A stretch of 32,000 nt of DNA from Pseudomonas aeruginosa. Its GTDB lineage: Bacteria > Pseudomonadota > Gammaproteobacteria > Pseudomonadales > Pseudomonadaceae. This document shows, piece after piece, positions 1 through 9,557 of this stretch (position 1 is the first letter of the stretch; each line of letters starts with the position of its first letter). Below the pieces are notes generated by a model, which was not told the origin of the DNA, did not search any database, and worked only from the letters and a program-made list of their open reading frames with translations. Position numbers and translations under genes: made by a program. The DNA is taken from the NCBI RefSeq assembly GCF_001457615.1, contig NZ_LN831024.1, forward strand, positions 3,630,001-3,662,000, written 5' to 3'.

Positions 1-171
1 GGTCAGCACCACGCCGGCGATCCCCTCTTTCTCCGCCTCCAGCCGTGCGATGGTCTTCGCCATCGCCTCGCGGTAGACACCGTTCATGGTGTTGGCGCTC
101 TGCCCGGGCATGTCCATGGTCAGGACGACGACGTTGTCCTGGCCTTTTTCGTAACGGATAGCGTCAGTCAT
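1..171 (-). CDS. FadB-like enoyl-CoA hydratase / 3-hydroxyacyl-CoA dehydrogenase, N-terminal fragment (continues past the window start)
   Basis: Not in the ORF track because it runs off the window. My minus-strand translation from the ATG (cat at 169-171) is MTDAIRYEKGQDNVVVLTMDMPGQSANTMNGVYREAMAKTIARLEAEKEGIAGVVLT, open to base 1. It starts 13 nt after the thiolase stop, the usual thiolase/dehydrogenase pairing. Confidence 0.6.
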   Translation of the reverse strand, partial: MTDAIRYEKGQDNVVVLTMDMPGQSANTMNGVYREAMAKTIARLEAEKEGIAGVVLT

Positions 172-184
172 TCCGGTTCTCCCT

Positions 185-1390
<1,206 letters not shown>

Positions 1391-1929
1391 GGCGGTCTCT
1401 CTTATCCTGTTCTCGTCCGGCCGAGCGGGCCTCCGCCTACCTTAAACAGGCTCGCCGGCGGGACAATGACCGAACCGCTCAGGCTGATTGACCGCCCAGC
1501 TCAGCCTGCAACACCGGGAAGATAGCACCATGCCATCTTTCGACCGGAAACCCGGACACCGGACGAACGGTCGAGACGCACGCCAGAGCCGTCACCACGC
1601 TGTCATATAGAGGGAATATGTCTAGACCGCAGCAGCTTGTATCCAAGTGGTCTAAGCCCGCGCAGGCCGGGGCTTAGACTGATTCATGCAAGCGTTCGAA
1701 AGGGAGGTCGACGCCGGGGATGCCGGGCCGACCGAAGAGTACGCCACTGCGTGGCAAGCCGTTCCGCCGGGCCGTAGCGCGGAGCAGGCAGCCACCCGAC
1801 AACAAGAAAGGCAGACAGGCCATGTTGAACGAGCAGCCAAAAAGATGGCGGCAAGCGAGCCTCATCGTCTTCGCCACCACAGTCATCCTGATCCTTCCCA
1901 ACCTTAACAGTCTGATCCGTTAGGGCACC

Positions 1930-1979
1930 TGCTGCCTGCACGCTGCGCACCGCCTCGCGGTCAGCGCAGCGCAGGCAGC
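1930..1979 (-). terminator. long imperfect GC hairpin spanning the stop codon of the AEC permease gene (candidate terminator or mRNA 3' stabiliser)
   Basis: Minus strand reads GCTGCCTGC-GCTGCGC ... GCGCAGC-GT-GCAGGCAGC, about 16 bp of stem with a 2-nt bulge. There is no clear U-tract, so the function is uncertain. Confidence 0.3.
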
Positions 1980-2848
1980 CACCAGGTCAGCAGCAGCGGA
2001 ATGAAGGCGAACGACAGCAGGGTCGAACACAGCACCAGGCTGGCGACCTGATCCGGCGAACGATTGCCGCGCAAGGCGTAGAGATAGTTGAACACCGCCA
2101 CCGGCATCGACGACTGCACCACCAGCACCCCCTGCGCCAGCGGCGGCAATTGCAACGCCAGCGCCACCGACCAGCCCACCAGCGCCCCCAGCAGAAGACG
2201 CAAGCCGCCATAGAAAAAGCCATTGCCCAGTTGCCGCGGGCGGATGCTGGCCAGGGACACGCCGAGGGTGATCAGCATCAGCGGAATGGTCAGCCCGGCC
2301 ATCAGGTCGACGGTATTCGCCATCCAGCGTGGCAGTTGCAGGTCGAGCCCCATCAACAACAAGGCCAGCAGCACGCTGAGCAGGATCGGATTGCCCAGCA
2401 GCGAACGCCAGGAGCGCTCGCCGCTCATCCAGAACACGCCGAGGCTGAAGTTGCCGATCGACATGATCAGGTAGAACGCCACCGCCAGGGTCATCCCCGC
2501 CTCGCCGAACGCATACAGGCACACCGGCAGGCCCATGTTGCCGACATTCGGGAAGCTGTAGGCCGGCACCAGCACCTGCCACTCCTGGCGCCCGAGGCGC
2601 GCCGCCGCCCAGCCCAGCGCAGCCATGCAGACGCAGATCAGCGCGCTGGCCAGGGCCATCCGGCCGAAACTGTGCAGGTCCACCCGGGTATGCGCCAGGG
2701 TGGCGAGGATCAGGCATGGCGAACCGATGTTGAACACGATGCGCGAAACGAACTCGGTCGGATAGGCGTGTCCGAGACGGACCCAGACGTAACCGACACC
2801 GGCGCCGAACAGCACGGGCGCCATCACGGCGAACAACTCGGCGAGCAC
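1961..2848 (-). CDS. AEC (auxin efflux carrier) family membrane transporter
   Basis: 295-aa polytopic hydrophobic ORF (MLAELFAVMAPVLFGAGVGYVW...). The start is a GTG (cac at 2846-2848) preceded by AAGGGG. An alternative ATG lies at 2824. Confidence 0.8.
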   Translation of the reverse strand: MLAELFAVMAPVLFGAGVGYVWVRLGHAYPTEFVSRIVFNIGSPCLILATLAHTRVDLHSFGRMALASALICVCMAALGWAAARLGRQEWQVLVPAYSFPNVGNMGLPVCLYAFGEAGMTLAVAFYLIMSIGNFSLGVFWMSGERSWRSLLGNPILLSVLLALLLMGLDLQLPRWMANTVDLMAGLTIPLMLITLGVSLASIRPRQLGNGFFYGGLRLLLGALVGWSVALALQLPPLAQGVLVVQSSMPVAVFNYLYALRGNRSPDQVASLVLCSTLLSFAFIPLLLTWWLPALR

Positions 2849-2960
2849 GGGAACCCCTTGGTTAGCCAGCTATGCAATGGCCCGCATGCTACCGCGAGGC
2901 CCCCGTTCCGTGCCAATCTCTCGCTCCATGCCATAACCGGCGGATGCACGAGGAACCCGC

Positions 2961-3781
2961 ATGCCTGTCACTCTCCCGCGCCTGGCGTTGCTAGGTGCCC
3001 TGCTCTTCCCTGTGGCTGCCGCCTGGGCCGCCGAGCTCCGCCTGGAACTGCCGGGGGCACGCAGACCTGGAGCAGCGAAGAACTGCTCAGGCATCCGCAG
3101 GCCCGCGACCTGGACATCCCGGCCGACGTCGCCTACCGCCGGAACATGCGCTACCGCGCCGTGCCACTGGCGGCGTTGTTGAAAGGCGTGCATCCCGAAG
3201 ACCATTTGCAGGCCGTGGCCAGCGACGGCTTCGCCGCCGAGTTGCCGGCCGCCCCGCTGCTCGCCGAACAGGGCTCGCAAGCCTGGCTGGCGATAGAGGA
3301 TCCGCAGCGCCCCTGGCCGCCGCTGGGCGCGGGCAAGCCGTCCGCCGGGCCGTTCTATCTGGTCTGGAGCAAACCCGAGGAAAAACGCATCGGTCCGGAG
3401 CAATGGCCCTTCCAGGTCGTCCGCATCCGCTACCAGTCCCCTCTGGCCGAACGCTTCCCGGCCCTGCTGCCGGCCGCTGACGCCAGCGCGGAGGTGCGCG
3501 CCGGCTTCGCCGTGTTCCAGAAGAACTGCCTGGCCTGCCACCGTCTCAACGGTGCCGGCGACGCCCAGTTCGGCCCGGACCTGAACCTGCCGTACAACCC
3601 CACCGAGTACTTCCAGCCGCAATTCCTCGCCCGCTACATCCGCGACCCGCAGGCGCTGCGGCAATGGCCGCAGGCGAAGATGCCGGCGTTCCCGGAACGG
3701 GTGATCGACGACCAGGAGTTGCGCCAGTTGATCGGCTACCTGCGCCACATGGCCGGCCGCAAGGCGGGCGCGGCCGGCTGA
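2961..3781 (+). pseudogene. periplasmic mono-haem cytochrome c domain protein, apparently frameshifted at a G5 tract (3053-3057)
   Basis: The ATG at 2961 encodes a Sec-type signal peptide, MPVTLPRLALLGALLFPVAAAWAAELRLELPG, and then runs into nonsense with a stop at 3182. The conserved body (GTQTWSSEELL...FQKNCLACH...KMPAF...) is in the -1 frame and ends at 3781. One extra G in the gggggg-type run would fuse the two (..LPGGTQTW..). The first in-frame ATG of the body is at 3146 and has no signal peptide. Confidence 0.6.
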
Positions 3782-3788
3782 AGCGGCG

Positions 3789-4520
3789 TCAGATGTTGTA
3801 CGCCGAGGGCGGCGACGGCAGGCGCTCCAGCAAGTCGTGCAGGCCGGCGCTCCACTGGCGGCGGATGGCGCTGAAATAGGCGTCGTCCTCTGTGACCCGG
3901 TAGCCCTCCGGCAGGATCAGGCTGTCGCGGTGGTAGACCAGCAGGTCCAGCGGCATGCCCACCGAGAGGTTGCTGCGGATGGTCGAGTCGAACGACACCA
4001 GCGCGCAGCGCAGGGCCTGCTCCAGCGGCGTGTCGAAAGTCAGGTTGCGGTCGAGGATCGGCTTGCCGTACTTGCTTTCGCCCAGTTGCAGGAAAGGCGT
4101 GTCCGGCGTGGCCTGGATGAAGTTGCCCTGGGGATAGATGCTGTACAGCGCCGGCGGTCCGCCGGCGATCTGCCCGCCGACCAGGAAGGAACAGCTCAGG
4201 TCGGTATTGCCGGCCAGATTGCCGCTGTCGCGGGCCAGCACCTCGCGGGTGGTCTCGGCGACCAGCGCCGTGGCGTCGTAGACCGAGGGCACGTTGAGCA
4301 GGCTGGCGCCGTCCCGGCGGATGCGCTGCTGCAGCAGGTTGATCACCGATTGCGAGGTCGCCAGGTTGCCGGCCGTCTGCACCACCAGCAGGCGCTCGCC
4401 GGGCGTGCCGAAGGTGAACAGCTTGCGGAAGGTGGCGATATGGTCGATCCCGGCGTTGGTCCGCGAATCGGAGGCGAACACCAACCCATCGGCCAGGTGC
4501 ATCGCGACACAGTAGGTCAT
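3789..4520 (-). CDS. Anbu (ancestral beta-subunit) proteasome-like Ntn hydrolase
   Basis: 243 aa with the ATG verified and an AAGGAAG Shine-Dalgarno. The N-terminus MTYCVAM exposes Thr directly after Met with no propeptide. Asp17 (ASDSR) and Lys32 (FRKLF), counted from Thr1, match the proteasome beta catalytic triad. It is the last gene of an ATP-grasp/alpha-E/transglutaminase operon, the defining Anbu context. Confidence 0.85.
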   Translation of the reverse strand: MTYCVAMHLADGLVFASDSRTNAGIDHIATFRKLFTFGTPGERLLVVQTAGNLATSQSVINLLQQRIRRDGASLLNVPSVYDATALVAETTREVLARDSGNLAGNTDLSCSFLVGGQIAGGPPALYSIYPQGNFIQATPDTPFLQLGESKYGKPILDRNLTFDTPLEQALRCALVSFDSTIRSNLSVGMPLDLLVYHRDSLILPEGYRVTEDDAYFSAIRRQWSAGLHDLLERLPSPPSAYNI

Positions 4521-4601
4521 CTCGAATCTTCCTTATTCCGTCCGTCCCCGCCCCTCAAGCGTAAAGGCAATCGCCGATAACGCCAGGCGCGCAATGGATC
4601 G

Positions 4602-5402
4602 TCACTGTTGCTGCACCTGCAGCAGCGGCGCGCTGACCAGCACCCTCGCATGCATCTGCTCGCAACCGCCGCCACGGCGCAAGCCGCGCACCGGGCAGGC
4701 ATCCAGGTAGTCGAGGCCGACGGCCAGCTTGAGATGGCGCTCCGGACGGCCGAGCCGGTTGGTCACGTCGAAGCTGTACCAGCCGTCGCCGAGCCAGGCC
4801 TCGGCCCAGGCATGGCTGGCCAGGTGCGTATCGTCCTCGGTGTAGAGGTAGCCGGAGACGTAGCGCCCCGGCACGCCCTGGCTGCGGACGCAGGCGAGGA
4901 AGGCATGGGCATGGTCCTGGCAGACCCCGGCGCGTGCGCCGAAAGCCTCGATGGCGGTGCTGTCGACGCGGGTCGCCCCCGGCTGGTAGAGGATATGCTC
5001 GTGCAGCGCATGCATCAGGTCGAGCAGGCCGCCGCGGTCCTTGCGGCCGCCCATGGCGCGTTCGGCGAAGGCGCGCATCTCGGCATCGGCGCCGGTCAGG
5101 CGGGTGCTGCGCAGGAACGGCAACGGCGACTGGCGATCGTGCTCCACCTCGCGCTCCTCGTCGATCTCGACCAGGCCGTGGGCGGCGATCAGGACCGACT
5201 CATGCGGTTCGTCCAGGGTCAGGACGTGCAGGATGTTGCCGTACGGATCGCGCAGCGGCCGCGCCGGGCGCGGCAGGTCCAGGCGCCAATCGACCACGTG
5301 CTGGCGCTCGCTGTCCTGCGGGGTCAGGCGCAGGTACTGGATGCTGGCGCGCACCCGGTCTTCGTAGCGATAGGTGGTGTCGTGGGTGATCGAGAGTCTC
5401 AT
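4602..5402 (-). CDS. transglutaminase-like cysteine protease/ligase family protein (N-terminal bacterial transglutaminase domain plus core)
   Basis: The track ORF is 475 aa. I trimmed it to MRLSITHDTTYRYEDRV... (266 aa, ATG at 5402). The Cys-His-Asp motifs are visible: GVCQDHAH, SHAWAEAW, SFDVTN. The start overlaps the upstream stop (ATGA). Confidence 0.85.
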   Translation of the reverse strand: MRLSITHDTTYRYEDRVRASIQYLRLTPQDSERQHVVDWRLDLPRPARPLRDPYGNILHVLTLDEPHESVLIAAHGLVEIDEEREVEHDRQSPLPFLRSTRLTGADAEMRAFAERAMGGRKDRGGLLDLMHALHEHILYQPGATRVDSTAIEAFGARAGVCQDHAHAFLACVRSQGVPGRYVSGYLYTEDDTHLASHAWAEAWLGDGWYSFDVTNRLGRPERHLKLAVGLDYLDACPVRGLRRGGGCEQMHARVLVSAPLLQVQQQ

Positions 5403-6352
5403 GCGGCCTCCAGGTAGGAGCTGTGAATGGCGTTGGCCAACTGGCGAACCAGCAGGATGTAGTCGGTGATCCAGGTATGCAGGCCCTGTTCCAGCACCTC
5501 GTCGATGCCGGTGTAGCGCACCCGCGCCTCCAGCTCGGCGGCCAGGCGCTGCGCCGGCCGGCCGTTGACGCCGGGCAGGCCGGAAAGGATCTCGCTCAGT
5601 TCCTCGATGCAGGACAGCAGCGAACGTGGCACGTCCTCGCGCAACAGCAGCAATTCGGCGATGTTGCGCGCGTTGGGCGAGGCGCGGTACAGCTCGGTGT
5701 AGCCCTCGAAGGCGGATAGCGCCCGCAGCAGCGCGCTCCACTGGTAGTAGCCGCGCGCGGTGCCCTCGTCCGCCCCGGCGAGCGCCGCTTCGCCCTGGGT
5801 CTGGTAGCGCGCATCGAGCAGGCGCAAGGTATTGTCGGCGCGTTCGATGAAGGTTCCGAGACGGATGAAGCGGAACGCATCGTTGCGCATGCTGGTGGCG
5901 AAGGTCGCGCCGCGGAACAGGTGCGAGCGGTCCTTCACCCATTCGCAGAAACGACTGATGCCATAGCGCAGGATGCCCTCGGCGGCGATGCCGCGCATTT
6001 CCAGCCAGGTGGCGTTGATGTTCTCCCACATGTCCAGGGTGATCCGCCCGCGTACCGCATGGGCACTGGCGCGCGCTGCGGCCAGGCAGCTGTAGATGCT
6101 CGCCGGGTTGTCCGGGTCGAGGGCGAAGAAACTCAGCAGGCGCTCGGCGGCCAGTTCGCCGTGGCGCTCCAGGTAGGCGTCGAGGGTGCCGGTGATCAGC
6201 AGCGGCATGGCCAGTTCGTCCAGGCCGCCACCGTTGCGGTCCTGCGGCAACAGCGACAGCGAGTAGCTGACGTCGAGCATGCGGGCGAGGTTCTCCGCGC
6301 GTTCCAGGTAGCGCGACATCCAGTACAGGTCGGAAGCGGTCCGGCTGAGCAT
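5399..6352 (-). CDS. alpha-E domain protein
   Basis: The track ORF is 446 aa. I trimmed it to MLSRTASDLYWMSRYLERAENLARMLD... (317 aa, ATG at 6352), the N-terminal ER-motif helix typical of the alpha-E family. It starts 2 nt after the ATP-grasp stop. Confidence 0.8.
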   Translation of the reverse strand: MLSRTASDLYWMSRYLERAENLARMLDVSYSLSLLPQDRNGGGLDELAMPLLITGTLDAYLERHGELAAERLLSFFALDPDNPASIYSCLAAARASAHAVRGRITLDMWENINATWLEMRGIAAEGILRYGISRFCEWVKDRSHLFRGATFATSMRNDAFRFIRLGTFIERADNTLRLLDARYQTQGEAALAGADEGTARGYYQWSALLRALSAFEGYTELYRASPNARNIAELLLLREDVPRSLLSCIEELSEILSGLPGVNGRPAQRLAAELEARVRYTGIDEVLEQGLHTWITDYILLVRQLANAIHSSYLEAA

Positions 6353-6354
6353 GC

Positions 6355-7767
6355 TTATTCCTCCACCACCCAGGTGTCCTTGGTGCCGCCGCCCTGGGAC
6401 GAGTTGACCACCAGCGAGCCTTCGCGCAACGCCACCCGGGTCAGCCCGCCAGGCACCAGGCGAACCCGATCCGGCGCCGACAGGACGAACGGCCGCAGGT
6501 CGATATGGCGCGGCGCGACGCCGCTCTCGACGAAGGTCGGACAGGTCGACAGGGACAGCGTCGGTTGCGCGATATAGGCCTCCGGGCGAGCCTTCAGGCG
6601 CTCGCGGAACAGCTCGATTTCTTCCCGGCTGGCCGCCGGTCCGACCAGCATGCCGTAGCCGCCGGAACCCTGGGTCTCCTTCACCACCAGCTCCGGCAGG
6701 TGCGCCAGGACGTGCGCCAGTTCCTTCGGCTTGCGACATTGCCAGGTCGGCACGTTGTGCAGCAGCGGGTCTTCGCCGAGGTAGAAGCGGATCATGTCCG
6801 GCACGTAGGGGTAGATCGACTTGTCGTCGGCCACCCCGGTACCGATCGCGTTGGCCAGCACCAGGTTGCCGGCCCGGTAGGCGGCCAGCAGGCCGGGCAC
6901 GCCGAGCAGCGAATCCGGGTTGAACGCCAGCGGGTCGAGGAAGGCGTCGTCGATCCTTCGGTAGATCACGTCCACCGGTTGCGGTCCGGCCGTCGTGCGC
7001 ATGTAGACCCGCTCGTCGCGGACGAACAGATCGGCGCCTTCGACCAGTTCCACGCCCATCTCGCGGGCGAGGAAGGCGTGTTCGAAGTAGGCGCTGTTGA
7101 AACGTCCCGGCGTCAATACCACCACGCTCGGCGATTCGACGTCACTGGCCCGCTTTAGGGTGTCGAGCAGCAGGTCCGGGTAGTGGTCGATCGGCGCCAC
7201 GCGCTGGCGGACGAACAGCTCGGGGAACAGGCGCATCATCATCTTGCGGTTTTCCAGCATGTAGGAAACACCGCTGGGCGTGCGCAGGTTGTCCTCCAGC
7301 ACGTAGTAGTTGCCGCTGCCGTCGCGGACCAGGTCGACCCCGGCAATGTGCGCGTAGACGTTGCCCGGCAGGTCCAGTCCCTGCATCGCCAGTTGGTACT
7401 GGTCGTTGGCCAGGACCTGCTCGGCAGGAATCACCCCGGCCTTGAGGATGCGCTGTTCGTGGTAGAGGTCGGCGAGGAACAGGTTCAGCGCCTGGACGCG
7501 CTGGATGCAGCCGGCCTCGATGTGCGCCCACTCCGCCGCGGGAATGCTGCGCGGGATGGTGTCGAAGGGGATCAGGCGCTCGGTGCCCTGCTCGTCGCCG
7601 TACAGGGTGAAGGTGATGCCGGCGCGGTGGAACAGCAGGTCGGCTTCACGCCGGCGTTGCAGCAGTTGCTCTTCAGGGGTGTCGGCCAGCCAGCGAGCGA
7701 ATTCCCGATAATGCGAGCGGCATTCGCCGCCAGCATCGTGCATCTCGTCGTAAAACATGCGTGCCAT
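6355..7767 (-). CDS. circularly permuted type-2 ATP-grasp protein (predicted peptide/amide ligase)
   Basis: 470 aa with the ATG verified and an AAGGAG Shine-Dalgarno. I recognise the sequence (MARMFYDEM...RSHYREFARWL...) as the family that invariably precedes alpha-E and transglutaminase genes. No catalytic residues were verified by eye. Confidence 0.8.
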   Translation of the reverse strand: MARMFYDEMHDAGGECRSHYREFARWLADTPEEQLLQRRREADLLFHRAGITFTLYGDEQGTERLIPFDTIPRSIPAAEWAHIEAGCIQRVQALNLFLADLYHEQRILKAGVIPAEQVLANDQYQLAMQGLDLPGNVYAHIAGVDLVRDGSGNYYVLEDNLRTPSGVSYMLENRKMMMRLFPELFVRQRVAPIDHYPDLLLDTLKRASDVESPSVVVLTPGRFNSAYFEHAFLAREMGVELVEGADLFVRDERVYMRTTAGPQPVDVIYRRIDDAFLDPLAFNPDSLLGVPGLLAAYRAGNLVLANAIGTGVADDKSIYPYVPDMIRFYLGEDPLLHNVPTWQCRKPKELAHVLAHLPELVVKETQGSGGYGMLVGPAASREEIELFRERLKARPEAYIAQPTLSLSTCPTFVESGVAPRHIDLRPFVLSAPDRVRLVPGGLTRVALREGSLVVNSSQGGGTKDTWVVEE

Positions 7768-8007
7768 GCCGGACTCCTTGTCGTCACGAACGATGGGGAA
7801 CTCGCAAAGCCCGTGCCAGCGCGCGGATCACGGCTCGTCGGCGATTCGCAGGGTCGGCGCGGCGGGTTCGCCCCAGTCTGGTGCATCCTGCCCACAGGGA
7901 GAGGAAGGGCGCCCCGTTCGACGGCATGCGCGCCCCGCGGCCACGGACCGGCATCGACCTGCCGATCGCGAAGCGACCTGTGGGACCGATAAGTCTAGAA
8001 CAGACCC

Positions 8008-8037
8008 GGAAGGGAGACGGCTTCTCCCCTCCCTTCC
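8008..8037 (-). terminator. candidate terminator hairpin downstream of the amidotransferase gene
   Basis: GGAAGGGAG / CTCCCTTCC forms a 9-bp perfect stem with a 12-nt loop, about 80 nt after the stop at 8117. On the minus strand it is followed by the weakly U-rich GGGTCTGTTCT. Confidence 0.3.
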
Positions 8038-8116
8038 ATGCAGACAGCCGTCTCGCTCGAACGAGCGATAAAGCGGACCGGCGGTAGTGCCAGGGAGGCG
8101 CCCGCGGCCGGGAAGG

Positions 8117-8815
8117 TCAATCGATCAGCGACAGCCAATGACGGTAGAAACCCTCGGCCACCCGATTCAGCCCGGCAACCTTGGCAGGCAACCCGGCCAG
8201 CATGTCCTCGGCGGATTGCTGGCTGGGCTGGGAGGGATCGAGCAGGTGCGGCCAGCCGGCGATCCAGCGCCGCACCAGTTCCTCGGTCATTTCCGGATGG
8301 CCTTGCAGGCCGAGTACGTGATCGCCCCAGGAAAACCCCTGGTTCTCGCACCACGGGCTGGACAGCAGGCGCTCGGCGCCCTGCGGCAGGTCGAAGGCAT
8401 CGCCGTGCCACTGGAAGATCGAGAAGCGCTCCGGCAGCCCGGCCAGCCATGGACTGTCGCGGCTTTCCCGCTGCATGGGCTGCCAGCCCATTTCGGTGTA
8501 GGGCTGGTGCCGCACCGTCGCGCCCAGGGCGCGGGCCAGCAACTGGCCGCCGAGGCAATGGCCGATCAGCGGGATGCGCCGCTCGATGAAGCGACGCAGC
8601 AGCGCCAGTTCGTCGCGCAACCAGGGCAGGTCGTCGTTGACGCTCATCGGCCCACCCATGATCGCCACCGCTCGCGGGCGTTCGGCGTCGAGACCGGCGA
8701 GTTCGCCGAGGTCGGCGCGGATCACGCGGAAGTCCAGGCCGCGCTCCGCCAGCACGGCACCCAGATGGCCTGGCGGACAGAACTCGGCATGGGTCAGGAT
8801 CAGAATATCGCTCAT
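8117..8815 (-). CDS. class I glutamine amidotransferase-like protein (GMP synthase-type GATase1 domain only)
   Basis: 232 aa with the ATG verified and a GGAGG Shine-Dalgarno. The nucleophile elbow is LIGHCLGGQLLA and the His-Glu pair is in LQGHPEMT. Confidence 0.85.
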   Translation of the reverse strand: MSDILILTHAEFCPPGHLGAVLAERGLDFRVIRADLGELAGLDAERPRAVAIMGGPMSVNDDLPWLRDELALLRRFIERRIPLIGHCLGGQLLARALGATVRHQPYTEMGWQPMQRESRDSPWLAGLPERFSIFQWHGDAFDLPQGAERLLSSPWCENQGFSWGDHVLGLQGHPEMTEELVRRWIAGWPHLLDPSQPSQQSAEDMLAGLPAKVAGLNRVAEGFYRHWLSLID

Positions 8816-8912
8816 GGCTTACCTCCTTCCCCAGTCTGAAGGAAAGCCTTCGAGGAAGGAAAGCCCGACGCAGGAGCCCCGGCCCGGGATCGCGGCCGGG
8901 GTCCCGCCGCCG

Positions 8913-9254
8913 TCACGGACGCAGCGAAGTGACCTCCTGGGTCACGCCCCACCCGTCCAGCACGCCGCCCAGCGGCACCACGACTTCCTCCAGGTCGTGT
9001 TCGAAGGCACCGATGGCGGCATGGGTGGCGTACATCACCTTGCTGACCTGCAGGTTCCAGGAGCCATCGTCGCGAGCGACGACCTGGGCCCTGAGGGATT
9101 CGCCGCGAAACTGGCCCGCTGCCTGGCGGGCCTCCCGCTCACTGGGAAAGATGGCGAAGAAGTCGATGGGATGGATGCGCGCGAAGTCGAAGCCGCCTTC
9201 TTTCATGCGACGCAGGACATTCACGCTGACATCATCCGAGAAGGGCTTTTCCAT
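8913..9254 (-). CDS. RraB-like (regulator of ribonuclease activity B family) small protein
   Basis: The track ORF is 121 aa from the ATG at 9278. I prefer Met9 (MEKPFSDDVSVNVLRRMKEGGFDF...), 113 aa, because AGGAGG sits 8 nt upstream of the ATG at 9254. The family call is from sequence resemblance only. Confidence 0.6.
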   Translation of the reverse strand: MEKPFSDDVSVNVLRRMKEGGFDFARIHPIDFFAIFPSEREARQAAGQFRGESLRAQVVARDDGSWNLQVSKVMYATHAAIGAFEHDLEEVVVPLGGVLDGWGVTQEVTSLRP

Positions 9255-9529
9255 GAGACGCACCTCCTGTCGAGACATTCAGAAAATTCACCGATTCCCC
9301 ATTCAGCTGAAGCCATCGTCGGCGATCATGAGAGTTTTGTGATCAGGCCAGAGGAGGATCGGACGACCATGGCTTCTTTCAGGGTAGCGTCAACCTGCCA
9401 GCGCTGCCGAGCTTTCCGCCGCCTGCCCCGGCGGGCGGCGACCGGCGGCAGACAAAGCGCTGTACAAAAGGCCCGGCCGTTGAGCAAGATTCCGCCTGCG
9501 CCGGCGACCGTTGGTCCTGCCCGATGGCA

Positions 9530-9557
9530 TTGGCGAAAGCGACTCGTGCAATAATAT
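9530..9557 (+). promoter_or_regulatory. putative sigma70-type promoter for mucR
   Basis: TTGGCG (9530-9535), a 16-nt spacer, then TAATAT (9552-9557), 50 nt upstream of the mucR ATG. This rests on pattern match only. Confidence 0.3.

Follow-up and report, generated by a model that had tools for sequence, protein, structure and literature searches.

Operons encoding Anbu, which forms a split ring from one kind of subunit and has no alpha subunits, have been described in Yersinia bercovieri and Hyphomicrobium (PDB 5NYW, 5NYF, 5NYJ; Piasecka 2018, Vielberg 2018), with the same four-gene cassette and order as the locus analysed here; their Anbu proteins share Thr1, Asp17 and Lys32 and likewise have no detectable peptidase activity. 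Three-gene cassettes (S. meliloti pSymB, B. cenocepacia I35_5080-83 and a Caballeronia plasmid) keep the ligase, the alpha-E and the transglutaminase families in this order but, unlike the present operon, have no Anbu. Some of them encode an ATP-grasp-alpha-E fusion together with a large transglutaminase-DUF2126 amidoligase protein, the latter missing from the 32-kb stretch of DNA that was analysed (the window). HslV, the nearest widespread bacterial relative with the proteasome fold, is a Thr1 hydrolase with little activity alone; it works with the AAA+ HslU and is under heat-shock control, whereas no ATPase partner gene accompanies Anbu, whose regulation responds to nitrogen.

The Pup-proteasome of Actinobacteria (PafA ligase, Dop deamidase/depupylase, Mpa, 20S) follows a similar logic, with an ATP-dependent carboxylate-amine ligase, a reversing amidase and a proteasome-family hydrolase, and in mycobacteria it supports survival of nitrogen starvation via amino-acid recycling. 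Its ligase and amidase folds, however, are non-homologous to the ATP-grasp and transglutaminase-fold enzymes of the window, where neither a Pup-like tag gene nor an AAA+ unfoldase gene was found in or near the operon, and the alpha-less split ring of Anbu is a further difference. We regard the likeness as one of analogy, not of membership.

The minus-strand locus at 3789-7767 (Table 1) is chromosomal PA1730-PA1733 of Pseudomonas aeruginosa, the canonical Anbu operon, because its Anbu product matches PDB 5LOX (PA1733, cloned from PAO1; Fuchs et al. 2017) in 239 of 242 residues, the differences being the engineered SeMet substitutions L94M, L112M and L228M. The flanking genes agree with the PAO1 map (mucR-like MHYT-GGDEF-EAL gene, T3SS psc genes, thiolase) and the PA1728-PA1735 numbering is consistent with the PA14 expression table. 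Gene order and neighbours are shared with PAO1, from which the locus differs in nothing of substance; the alpha-E protein shares 99%, not 100%, identity with the commonest database cluster, so the strain may be other than PAO1. The Yersinia bercovieri and Hyphomicrobium Anbu proteins are more distant orthologues (phmmer E = 1e-90 to 5e-65 with the window Anbu).

Table 1. Features of the Anbu locus and its upstream region (window coordinates).
Feature	Position	Strand	Remarks
PA1733, Anbu (Anbu-1 subtype), proteasome-like Thr1 Ntn hydrolase	3789..4520	-	243 aa
Spacer, transglutaminase-like gene to Anbu	4521..4601	-	81 nt
PA1732 orthologue, transglutaminase-fold Cys-His-Asp enzyme	4602..5402	-	266 aa; PF08379 + PF01841
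PA1731 orthologue, alpha-E protein	5399..6352	-	317 aa; PF04168
PA1730 orthologue, circularly permuted type 2 ATP-grasp amide ligase	6355..7767	-	470 aa; PF14403
Ribosome-binding site AAGGAG of ATP-grasp gene	7774..7779	-	GACAAGGAGT invariant across the 11 species of alignment A1
Sigma-54 (RpoN) -24/-12 promoter TGGCACgggctTTGCg	7803..7818	-	predicted transcription start near 7792, ~25 nt before ATG
NtrC-type enhancer box TGCACCAgacTGGGGCG	7869..7885		12/14 consensus positions; assigned purely by consensus matching
Conserved upstream block ATGCCGTCGAACGGGGCG	7910..7927		weak dyad ~41 bp upstream of NtrC-type box

A first-pass annotation of this DNA had named four co-directional genes, their families and order, and catalytic motifs that it described as intact. 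The coordinates (outer limits exact) and the strand were borne out, the profile-HMM check that it proposed placed all four proteins in the named Pfam families with matches far above chance, and every motif was located in the translations. It also had the earlier literature right (Valas and Bourne 2008; Iyer 2009; structures published in 2017-2018). The novelty that it implied was overstated, as the PA1733 product had already been crystallised (5LOX) and its orthologues assayed for peptidase activity and complex formation, both with negative outcome; the locus is real and correctly identified, yet previously published. What is added here is the absence of an operon-encoded tag, the ATP-grasp/alpha-E fusion, the dispensability, in some lineages, of the transglutaminase and Anbu genes, and a duplicated alpha-E protein without a Foldseek match in the PDB. 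Taken as a whole, the reading of the locus as PA1730-PA1733, a single transcription unit under NtrBC/sigma-54 control, is in our judgement very probably correct.

The genes are tightly packed. The ATG of the alpha-E gene lies 2 nt past the ATP-grasp stop, and that of the transglutaminase-like gene overlaps the alpha-E stop as ATGA (4-nt overlap); translational coupling of these first three genes is strongly supported. Two longer listed ORFs were rejected: a 446-aa alpha-E ORF, which is a high-GC extension upstream of the true 317-aa start, and a 475-aa transglutaminase-like ORF, an upstream extension of the 266-aa gene. There is equally strong support for one transcription unit of all four genes. 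No internal promoter or terminator motif was found within the operon, including the 81-nt spacer, which lacks an ORF and folds into no significant RNA structure (fold z-score -0.55); in related loci the corresponding spacer ranges from an overlap to ~270 nt.

The order ATP-grasp, alpha-E, transglutaminase, Anbu is kept in 59 of 80 Anbu loci, spanning Pseudomonadaceae, Buttiauxella and Noviherbaspirillum. Anbu is encoded alone in 10 of the 80, and in cyanobacterial loci it is convergent to, and apart from, the other three genes. The transglutaminase gene is absent from Azomonas and some Burkholderiales loci, and the S. meliloti cassette lacks Anbu. Each of these two genes is dispensable in some lineages, and therefore the four activities need not form one obligatory pathway. 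In high-GC DNA, long spurious ORFs abound on either strand, which, together with this separability, could suggest that the four ORFs are no functional unit but chance ORFs, parts of a mobile or defence island, or genes transcribed independently. That reading is effectively refuted by the very strong family matches, a GC3 of 0.87-0.92 in the called frames, the conserved order and the co-regulation of all four genes; moreover, PADLOC gave no defence-system match for the locus, and neither flanking repeats nor mobile-element genes were found around the operon.

Upstream of the ATP-grasp gene, the exact TGGCAC-N5-TTGC sequence has its single occurrence in the window (0.10 expected). This promoter is invariant in the 11-species intergenic alignment, and in 56 of 67 related sequences the ATP-grasp gene is preceded by a GGCAC-N5-TTGC-type motif, for which the background rate is 0.04 per 400 nt; in Buttiauxella (Enterobacterales) the sigma-54-like motif is weaker. 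The NtrC-type box stands farther upstream, at a distance of 67 bp from the -24 element and 118 nt from the ATG. It is the sole match with two or fewer mismatches in the window (0.19 expected) and occupies the same position in the window and in 18 of 18 loci of the aeruginosa/Metapseudomonas/citronellolis clade, with a variable spacer. The otherwise diverged alignment shows just four conserved islands, among them the weak dyad at 7910..7927. This block fits the NtrC consensus at only ~8 of 14 positions and might serve as a second enhancer-binding site of low affinity.

Published expression data agree with this architecture. In PA14 RNA-seq all four genes are 2.3- to 5.3-fold lower in ntrB and ntrC mutants (ntrB/ntrC: PA1730, -5.29/-3.25; PA1731, -4.76/-2.83; PA1732, -4.20/-2.38; PA1733, -3.11/-2.30), moderate changes recorded under swarming conditions, with a gradient that is monotonic along the operon in both mutants. 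The Anbu operon was reported as the most upregulated gene set in nitrogen-limited P. putida (Hervas), the homologous B. cenocepacia cluster I35_5080-83 is NtrC/sigma-54-dependent, and COG3484 appears in predicted sigma-54 regulons. With a sigma-54 promoter and an NtrC-type enhancer box driving the operon, it is therefore strongly supported that the NtrBC nitrogen-limitation response switches it on, and the earlier statement that no trigger had been established does not hold. As points against the overall reading we count the consensus-only NtrC box, the moderate fold changes under swarming, and operon expression that stayed unchanged under many conditions (Fuchs et al.).

The ATP-grasp protein matches CP_ATPgrasp_2 over its full length (E = 6e-168) and PDB 3N6X, a 'putative glutathionylspermidine synthase' whose annotation is no firmer than that name, with E = 8e-212; its Yersinia orthologue shows ATP-dependent phosphate release (Piasecka 2018). 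The alpha-E protein, likewise matched over its full length (E = 8e-92), is an all-helical internal tandem duplication with two ERAxN motifs, YLERAEN at residues 15-21 and FIERADN at 168-174, and its halves align with an hhalign probability of 99.5% (E = 2.5e-22). Its AF2 model is confident (pLDDT 94.3), and no solved relative was found by sequence search or, with the model, by Foldseek against the PDB. The two proteins act as one unit, a conclusion strongly supported because a single fused polypeptide, a natural 860-aa protein, exists in Caballeronia. In the same Caballeronia cluster, a transglutaminase domain is fused to a DUF2126 amidoligase. The window's transglutaminase-like protein combines Bact_transglu_N (E = 4e-22) and Transglut_core (E = 7e-19), matches PDB 3ISR, a 'putative cysteine protease' (E = 5e-14), and carries its triad motifs at residues 159-166 (GVCQDHAH), 196-203 (SHAWAEAW) and 210-215 (SFDVTN).

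Anbu matches Pfam Proteasome with E = 7e-9 (36 bits vs a cut-off of 22.4). It begins M-T, with no in-frame start codon upstream, and retains Thr1, Asp17 and Lys32. Thr1 of Pa-Anbu is modified by epoxomicin and MG132, strong support for its being a reactive nucleophile. Pa-, Yb- and Hy-Anbu showed no peptidase activity on any substrate tried, casein and peptide libraries included; no stable complexes of the operon proteins were found, their co-expression had no effect on Anbu, and the operon is non-essential. No adduct or substrate has ever been reported, in line with the earlier remark on substrate and tag. The missing hydrolysis in vitro could also mean that Anbu is a transpeptidase or ligase that joins or cyclises peptides with the ATP-grasp enzyme, as connectase, a proteasome homologue, shows that the fold can be a specific ligase; Iyer et al. 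are cited as having proposed a peptide-synthesis system. We consider this very improbable, since Anbu keeps the full hydrolase set and a proteasome-like S1 pocket, oligomerises where connectase is a monomer, and has no precursor peptide gene nearby.

We propose instead a recycling mechanism that, taken alone, is possible but doubtful. Under nitrogen starvation, the ATP-grasp/alpha-E pair would spend ATP on joining a carboxylate of cellular proteins or peptides to a small amine or an amino acid through an amide or isopeptide bond, a marking without a gene-encoded tag. The transglutaminase-fold enzyme would trim or reverse that bond, and the split-ring Anbu complex would degrade whatever had been marked, recycling its amino acids and nitrogen. 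In function, such a scheme would parallel the Pup-proteasome pathway of mycobacteria, with non-homologous ligase and amidase parts. The Caballeronia transglutaminase-DUF2126 fusion backs its ligase-amidase pairing, and Thr1 modification of Pa-Anbu with phosphate release by the Yersinia ATP-grasp enzyme backs its hydrolase competence. Against it count the peptidase inactivity, the lack of stable complexes and reported adducts, the non-essential operon, the absence of a nearby tag or unfoldase gene, and the lineages missing the transglutaminase or Anbu.

Several of the same observations would suit small-molecule amide metabolism, which we hold to be rather unlikely. Here the ATP-grasp and Cys-His-Asp enzymes would be a synthetase/amidase couple, in the likeness of E. 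coli glutathionylspermidine synthetase/amidase (GspSA), making and breaking an amide of low molecular weight, for example a peptide-polyamine or gamma-glutamyl conjugate, that stores or mobilises nitrogen, with Anbu as an Ntn amidohydrolase on that amide or on short peptides. The closest solved relative of the ATP-grasp protein (3N6X), the pairing of transglutaminase-like domains with two unrelated amidoligase folds, the tagless operon and the inactivity of Anbu on proteins and peptides are consistent with this, as is, in the single case of Azomonas agilis, a spermidine synthase gene directly upstream of the cassette. The 3N6X annotation is putative, however, and the amidase likeness to GspSA is a presumed one. 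Many Ntn hydrolases do cut non-peptide amides (Piasecka et al.), but Anbu assembles into a large split ring whose many active sites face a cavity, and it binds peptide-like proteasome inhibitors, features that Fuchs et al. read as pointing to polypeptide substrates.

Tag-independent starvation proteolysis, a hypothesis advanced by Hervas, Fuchs and Piasecka, is in our view unlikely. Working in the manner of an uncapped 20S proteasome, Anbu would carry out bulk degradation of damaged or unfolded proteins when nitrogen runs short; the transglutaminase-like enzyme would free ammonia or trim peptides further, and the ATP-grasp/alpha-E role would be separate or regulatory. Nitrogen-limitation control and the loci in which Anbu stands apart from the other genes fit this account, whereas the tight translational coupling, the widely kept order with the ligase genes and the inactivity on casein and peptide libraries do not. 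In addition, the three-gene core exists, and in B. cenocepacia is nitrogen-regulated, without Anbu, and therefore the ligase is no accessory to Anbu.

Contrary to the earlier claim, the operon also has a phenotype: a published PA1732 transposon mutant shows low activity of las/rhl quorum-sensing reporters and fares poorly in biofilm-tobramycin competition.

The four co-directional genes at 3789-7767, which the first-pass annotation had read as a complete Anbu operon, were confirmed from their gene boundaries, all on the minus strand, and Pfam profile HMMs placed the four proteins in the families it had named. The ATP-grasp protein matched CP_ATPgrasp_2 with E = 6e-168 (the PF14403/PF04174 match spans its full length, profile positions 1-374 of 374) and PDB entry 3N6X, annotated as a 'putative glutathionylspermidine synthase', with E = 8e-212. 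The alpha-E protein covered profile positions 1-294 of 294 in PF04168 (E = 8e-92), and the transglutaminase-like protein contained both Bact_transglu_N (PF08379, E = 4e-22) and Transglut_core (PF01841, E = 7e-19) and matched PDB entry 3ISR, a 'putative cysteine protease' (E = 5e-14). Anbu matched the Proteasome family (PF00227) with E = 7e-9 and 36.1 bits against a gathering cut-off of 22.4. All four families thus lie co-directionally in the conserved order of the Anbu operon cassette. The NCBIfam search returned no specific model for the operon proteins, and PADLOC gave zero matches for any of the four, placing them in no known anti-phage defence system. Longer ORFs of 446 and 475 aa in the mechanical ORF list were rejected as upstream extensions typical of 67% GC DNA.

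Each catalytic motif listed in the first-pass annotation was found at its place in the translated proteins. The Cys-His-Asp triad of the transglutaminase-like protein is complete (Cys in GVCQDHAH, His in SHAWAEAW, Asp in SFDVTN). Anbu starts with M-T, so that Thr1 directly follows the initiator Met with no propeptide, and Asp17 and Lys32 are present; no other start codon lies in frame between the Anbu ATG and the preceding stop. The S1 pocket of the Anbu-1 type (T20, F30, T48, L52, and S55) is also present, in agreement with the residues of Fuchs et al.

Anbu is identical in 239 of 242 residues (533.8 bits) to PDB entry 5LOX, the crystal structure of P. aeruginosa Anbu (PA1733), and its top five PDB matches are all Anbu proteins. 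The three differences are L94M, L112M, and L228M, which Fuchs et al. put into PA1733 for selenomethionine phasing. The C-terminal segment, with the helical extension H5, is the same as in 5LOX through residue 243, and the split-ring or helical dodecameric assembly was established experimentally for this same protein. The neighbouring genes of the window (a thiolase, an AEC-type transporter, a convergent cytochrome c gene, the upstream glutamine amidotransferase-like (GATase) and RraB-like genes, the MHYT-GGDEF-EAL protein, and the type III secretion psc genes) fit the PAO1 map around PA1727-PA1736, with numbering consistent with the PA14 expression table discussed below. Together, the identity to 5LOX, the PAO1-like neighbours, and the PA numbering place the window on the P. 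aeruginosa chromosome and make the four genes PA1730-PA1733. The first-pass annotation thus named a genuine system correctly, and the locus is the reference Anbu operon. A contig search for Anbu relatives returned P. paraeruginosa as the best genome match (95% identity) and no P. aeruginosa record.

Features of the Anbu operon and its surroundings, in window coordinates
Feature	Position	Strand	Remarks
PA1735-like Mem_trans transporter gene	1961-2848	minus	
Cytochrome c gene (PA1734)	about 3000-3781	plus	convergent; ends 7 bp from the Anbu stop
GC stem	3752-3778		perfect 9-bp stem, 9-nt loop
Anbu gene (PA1733)	4520..3789	minus	243 aa, fourth gene
Spacer, transglutaminase-like gene to Anbu	4521-4601		81 nt
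Transglutaminase-like gene (PA1732)	5402..4602	minus	266 aa; ATG overlaps the alpha-E TGA as ATGA
Alpha-E gene (PA1731)	6352..5399	minus	317 aa; ATG two bases past the ATP-grasp TAA
ATP-grasp gene (PA1730)	7767..6355	minus	470 aa, first gene; stop TAA
Sigma-54 -24/-12 promoter	7803-7818		TGGCACgggctTTGC at 7804-7818
NtrC-type box	7869-7885		TGCACCAgacTGGGGCG
Weak dyad	7910-7927		
Class-I glutamine amidotransferase-like gene	8117-8815	minus	just upstream; adjoins the cassette in 4/80 loci
RraB-like gene	8913-9278	minus	just upstream; adjoins the cassette in 3/80 loci
MHYT-GGDEF-EAL signalling protein gene (mucR-like)	9511-11664	plus	helped to assign the window to the P. aeruginosa genome
Type III secretion genes	14232-19127		FliH/SctL-like 14232-14876, YscD-like 17769-19127; helped to place the window

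The literature agrees with the publication history given in the first-pass annotation, namely proposals in 2008-2009 and structures in 2017-2018. The definition of the cassette goes back to Valas and Bourne (2008) and Iyer et al. (2009); the Anbu structures that followed include crystal structures of the window's own protein. Two further statements did not hold. The system had been described as having no established trigger, and nitrogen limitation or NtrBC control has been published for P. putida and P. aeruginosa PA14, with sigma-54/NtrC dependence of the homologous cluster in B. cenocepacia. It had also been described as having no established phenotype, and a PA1732 transposon mutant has published defects: low las and rhl reporter activity and poor performance in a biofilm-tobramycin competition. 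The Anbu operon is thus already published and its trigger already known. No later functional study was found in the literature searched.

In the 349 nt that precede the ATP-grasp gene there is a sigma-54 -24/-12 promoter, the sole exact match to TGGCAC-N5-TTGC (GG-N10-GC) in the 32 kb window (0.10 expected). Upstream of it lies an NtrC-type box agreeing with the consensus at 12 of 14 positions, the only site in the window with two or fewer mismatches (0.19 expected). The 400 nt preceding the ATP-grasp gene were surveyed in the window and 66 loci, 67 sequences altogether; 56 of these carry the -24/-12 motif, whose background frequency is 0.04 per 400 nt. Throughout the aeruginosa/Metapseudomonas/citronellolis clade (all 18 loci, and the window), the promoter is located at -50 or -51 and the NtrC-type box at -116 to -120. 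In the putida and fluorescens groups no clear NtrC-type box was seen within these 400 nt. An 11-species alignment of the otherwise diverged upstream spacer retained only four conserved islands: the weak dyad, the NtrC-type box, the -24/-12 promoter, and the ribosome-binding site. A scan inside the operon found no sigma-70 promoter-like and no intrinsic-terminator-like site.

Published expression data point the same way. All four genes are reduced in ntrB and ntrC mutants of PA14 (Alford et al. 2020, Table S3), with fold changes (ntrB/ntrC) of -5.29/-3.25 for PA1730, -4.76/-2.83 for PA1731, -4.20/-2.38 for PA1732, and -3.11/-2.30 for PA1733. Such a smooth drop from PA1730 to PA1733 is expected from one promoter in front of PA1730. 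According to the note added in proof of Valas and Bourne, no genes of P. putida are more strongly upregulated under nitrogen limitation than those of the Anbu operon; in B. cenocepacia, the strongest sigma-54/NtrC-dependent genes include the homologous ATP-grasp/alpha-E/transglutaminase cluster. With a unique, conserved promoter and box and no internal site, regulation of the operon by sigma-54/NtrC is well supported; NtrC would bind at the 7869-7885 box.

The GATase and RraB-like genes, considered as further operon members, show a mild NtrBC dependence in PA14 (about -1.7 to -2.1). Both were rejected, because the sigma-54 promoter lies downstream of them and they adjoin the cassette in so few relatives. 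PA1735 is also reduced in the PA14 mutants (-3.82/-2.85); between it and the Anbu operon lies the convergent cytochrome c gene, and a search of its upstream region found no sigma-54 motif that could account for its NtrBC dependence. It may be controlled indirectly, or it may be reached by transcripts that read through from the Anbu operon in antisense to PA1734. The GC stem (GCCGGCCGC / GCGGCCGGC), which begins 11 nt past the Anbu stop within the 3' end of the cytochrome c gene, was not called by the terminator scan because it has no U-tract.

Co-conservation was assessed in 80 fetched loci encoding Anbu relatives, each with 6 kb flanks. The ATP-grasp, alpha-E, transglutaminase, and Anbu genes occur in this order on one strand in 59 of the 80, so that the cassette is co-conserved across genomes. 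These 59 include all Pseudomonadaceae except Azomonas, together with Buttiauxella and Noviherbaspirillum. The transglutaminase gene is missing in Azomonas and five Burkholderiales MAG loci; a three-gene unit is convergent with Anbu in four loci, three of them cyanobacterial MAGs; and Anbu stands alone, within the 6 kb flanks, in ten. On S. meliloti pSymB the three-gene core is found with no Anbu gene. The cassette is modular, with a ligase core, an optional amidase, and an optional Anbu. Among the Burkholderiales MAGs (L060-L068), where Anbu is 50% identical, MFS transporter genes follow Anbu or lie between Anbu and alpha-E, and some have a lone Anbu beside an NMT1/ABC transporter cluster.

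Gene fusions, located via annotated plasmids, bear on the ligase core. On plasmid NZ_CP071132 of Caballeronia sp. M1242 (L083), CP_ATPgrasp_2 (residues 97-482) and Alpha-E (530-849) are parts of a single 860-aa fusion protein, whose gene is overlapped by the transglutaminase-like gene that follows. Over its full length, the window's ATP-grasp protein aligns with the N-terminal portion of this fusion (34% identity, E = 9e-82). The best 150 alpha-E family representatives gave no evidence of fusion: leaving aside fragments and a few longer entries (up to 428 aa), all were stand-alone proteins. The Caballeronia fusion, taken with the 2-nt gap and the ATGA overlap of the window's genes, is an argument for ATP-grasp and alpha-E acting as a single enzyme. 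From its family, the ATP-grasp protein is predicted to be an ATP-dependent carboxylate-amine ligase, phosphate release from ATP being known for the Yersinia orthologue only. The same Caballeronia cluster (532-7527 of the locus) also encodes a 1154-aa protein that joins transglutaminase-like domains to DUF2126, a putative amidoligase with a fold different from ATP-grasp. These fusions and the gene spacing in the window also speak for a repeated pairing of the Cys-His-Asp protein with amide ligases. The cluster adjoins a stand-alone ATP-grasp/alpha-E pair and a zinc metallopeptidase.

For the alpha-E protein, a sequence search found no solved relative. An AlphaFold2 model built from a diverse alignment of 102 sequences was all-helical, with pLDDT 94.3 and pTM 0.92 (a model from 36 close Pseudomonas homologues, with pLDDT 60, was discarded), and a Foldseek search of it against the PDB gave nothing better than E = 0.18 and TM 0.33. 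The two halves matched each other in an hhalign profile-profile comparison with 99.5% probability and E = 2.5e-22, so that alpha-E is an internal tandem duplication, each half of which carries an ERAxN-AR-LD motif (YLERAEN at 15-21, FIERADN at 168-174). In the 102 diverse sequences E17-R18 and E170-R171 are at least 90% conserved. Arginine occupies nine of the 26 positions conserved at this level, which hints that alpha-E may bind an anionic ligand. An Acinetobacter MAG locus (L057, 4615-5217) encodes a 200-aa alpha-E covering profile positions 4-191 of 294 only, approximately one repeat and part of the next.

Turning to the function of the whole cassette, many substrates were tried on the Anbu proteins of P. 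aeruginosa, Yersinia bercovieri, and Hyphomicrobium and gave no peptidase activity, while Thr1 of the P. aeruginosa protein reacts with epoxomicin and MG132. The operon proteins formed no stable complexes among themselves, and co-expression left Anbu unaltered. Earlier in vitro conditions and protein combinations may have missed the nitrogen trigger or the ATP-grasp-alpha-E unit. [quoted passage not shown] The lack of observed protease activity, together with the annotation of 3N6X, supports a small-molecule cycle resembling glutathionylspermidine synthetase/amidase, which we nonetheless consider doubtful. In Azomonas agilis (L056, 2629-3480) a spermidine synthase gene lies directly upstream of the cassette, which there consists of ATP-grasp, alpha-E, and Anbu and has no transglutaminase gene; given the annotation of 3N6X, this neighbour is suggestive, and it is a single case.

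A marking system would resemble the Pup-proteasome in its logic, with a non-homologous ligase and amidase. Unlike that system, which has a gene-encoded tag and an AAA+ unfoldase, the Anbu operon has neither. The 349-nt upstream and 81-nt spacers contain only Arg/Pro-rich, non-conserved reading frames; the 81-nt spacer is too short for a tag ORF, varies in length among relatives, and has no significant fold. No AAA+ ATPase gene is found among the neighbours, and Rfam had no matches in window positions 1-12000. With no tag gene and no AAA+ gene, the operon is at most an analogue of the Pup-proteasome.

Under nitrogen limitation, the ATP-grasp/alpha-E enzyme might form an amide or isopeptide bond between proteins or peptides and a small donor that is not gene-encoded, the transglutaminase-fold enzyme might edit or reverse this bond, and Anbu might degrade the marked material so that nitrogen is recycled. 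We hold this chain as a whole to be possible rather than probable. A more specific version, a 'mark and recycle' response to nitrogen starvation as a Gram-negative counterpart of pupylation built from unrelated parts and lacking a gene-encoded tag, seems unlikely; here the ATP-grasp/alpha-E ligase, fused in some natural proteins, would mark selected proteins by attaching an amino acid or small amine to their carboxylates, the mark would be edited by the transglutaminase-fold enzyme, and an otherwise latent Anbu split ring would be activated by the marked proteins and degrade them. Bulk proteolysis during starvation, independent of any tag, we likewise judge improbable. If tag-and-recycle were true, it would be a second, independently evolved bacterial route of protein marking to a proteasome-like hydrolase.

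Since the locus is the reference Anbu operon itself, the window yields no new system and contributes regulatory and architectural details only to Anbu biochemistry. In practice, sequence and published data indicate that the operon is on under nitrogen limitation via NtrBC/sigma-54, that ATP-grasp and alpha-E are best handled as a single enzyme, and that an operon-encoded tag is not to be expected. A repeat search around the operon gave only short GC-rich chance matches, none meaningful. The GC content is 0.59-0.60 at 22000-24000 of the window, compared with 0.63-0.71 elsewhere.
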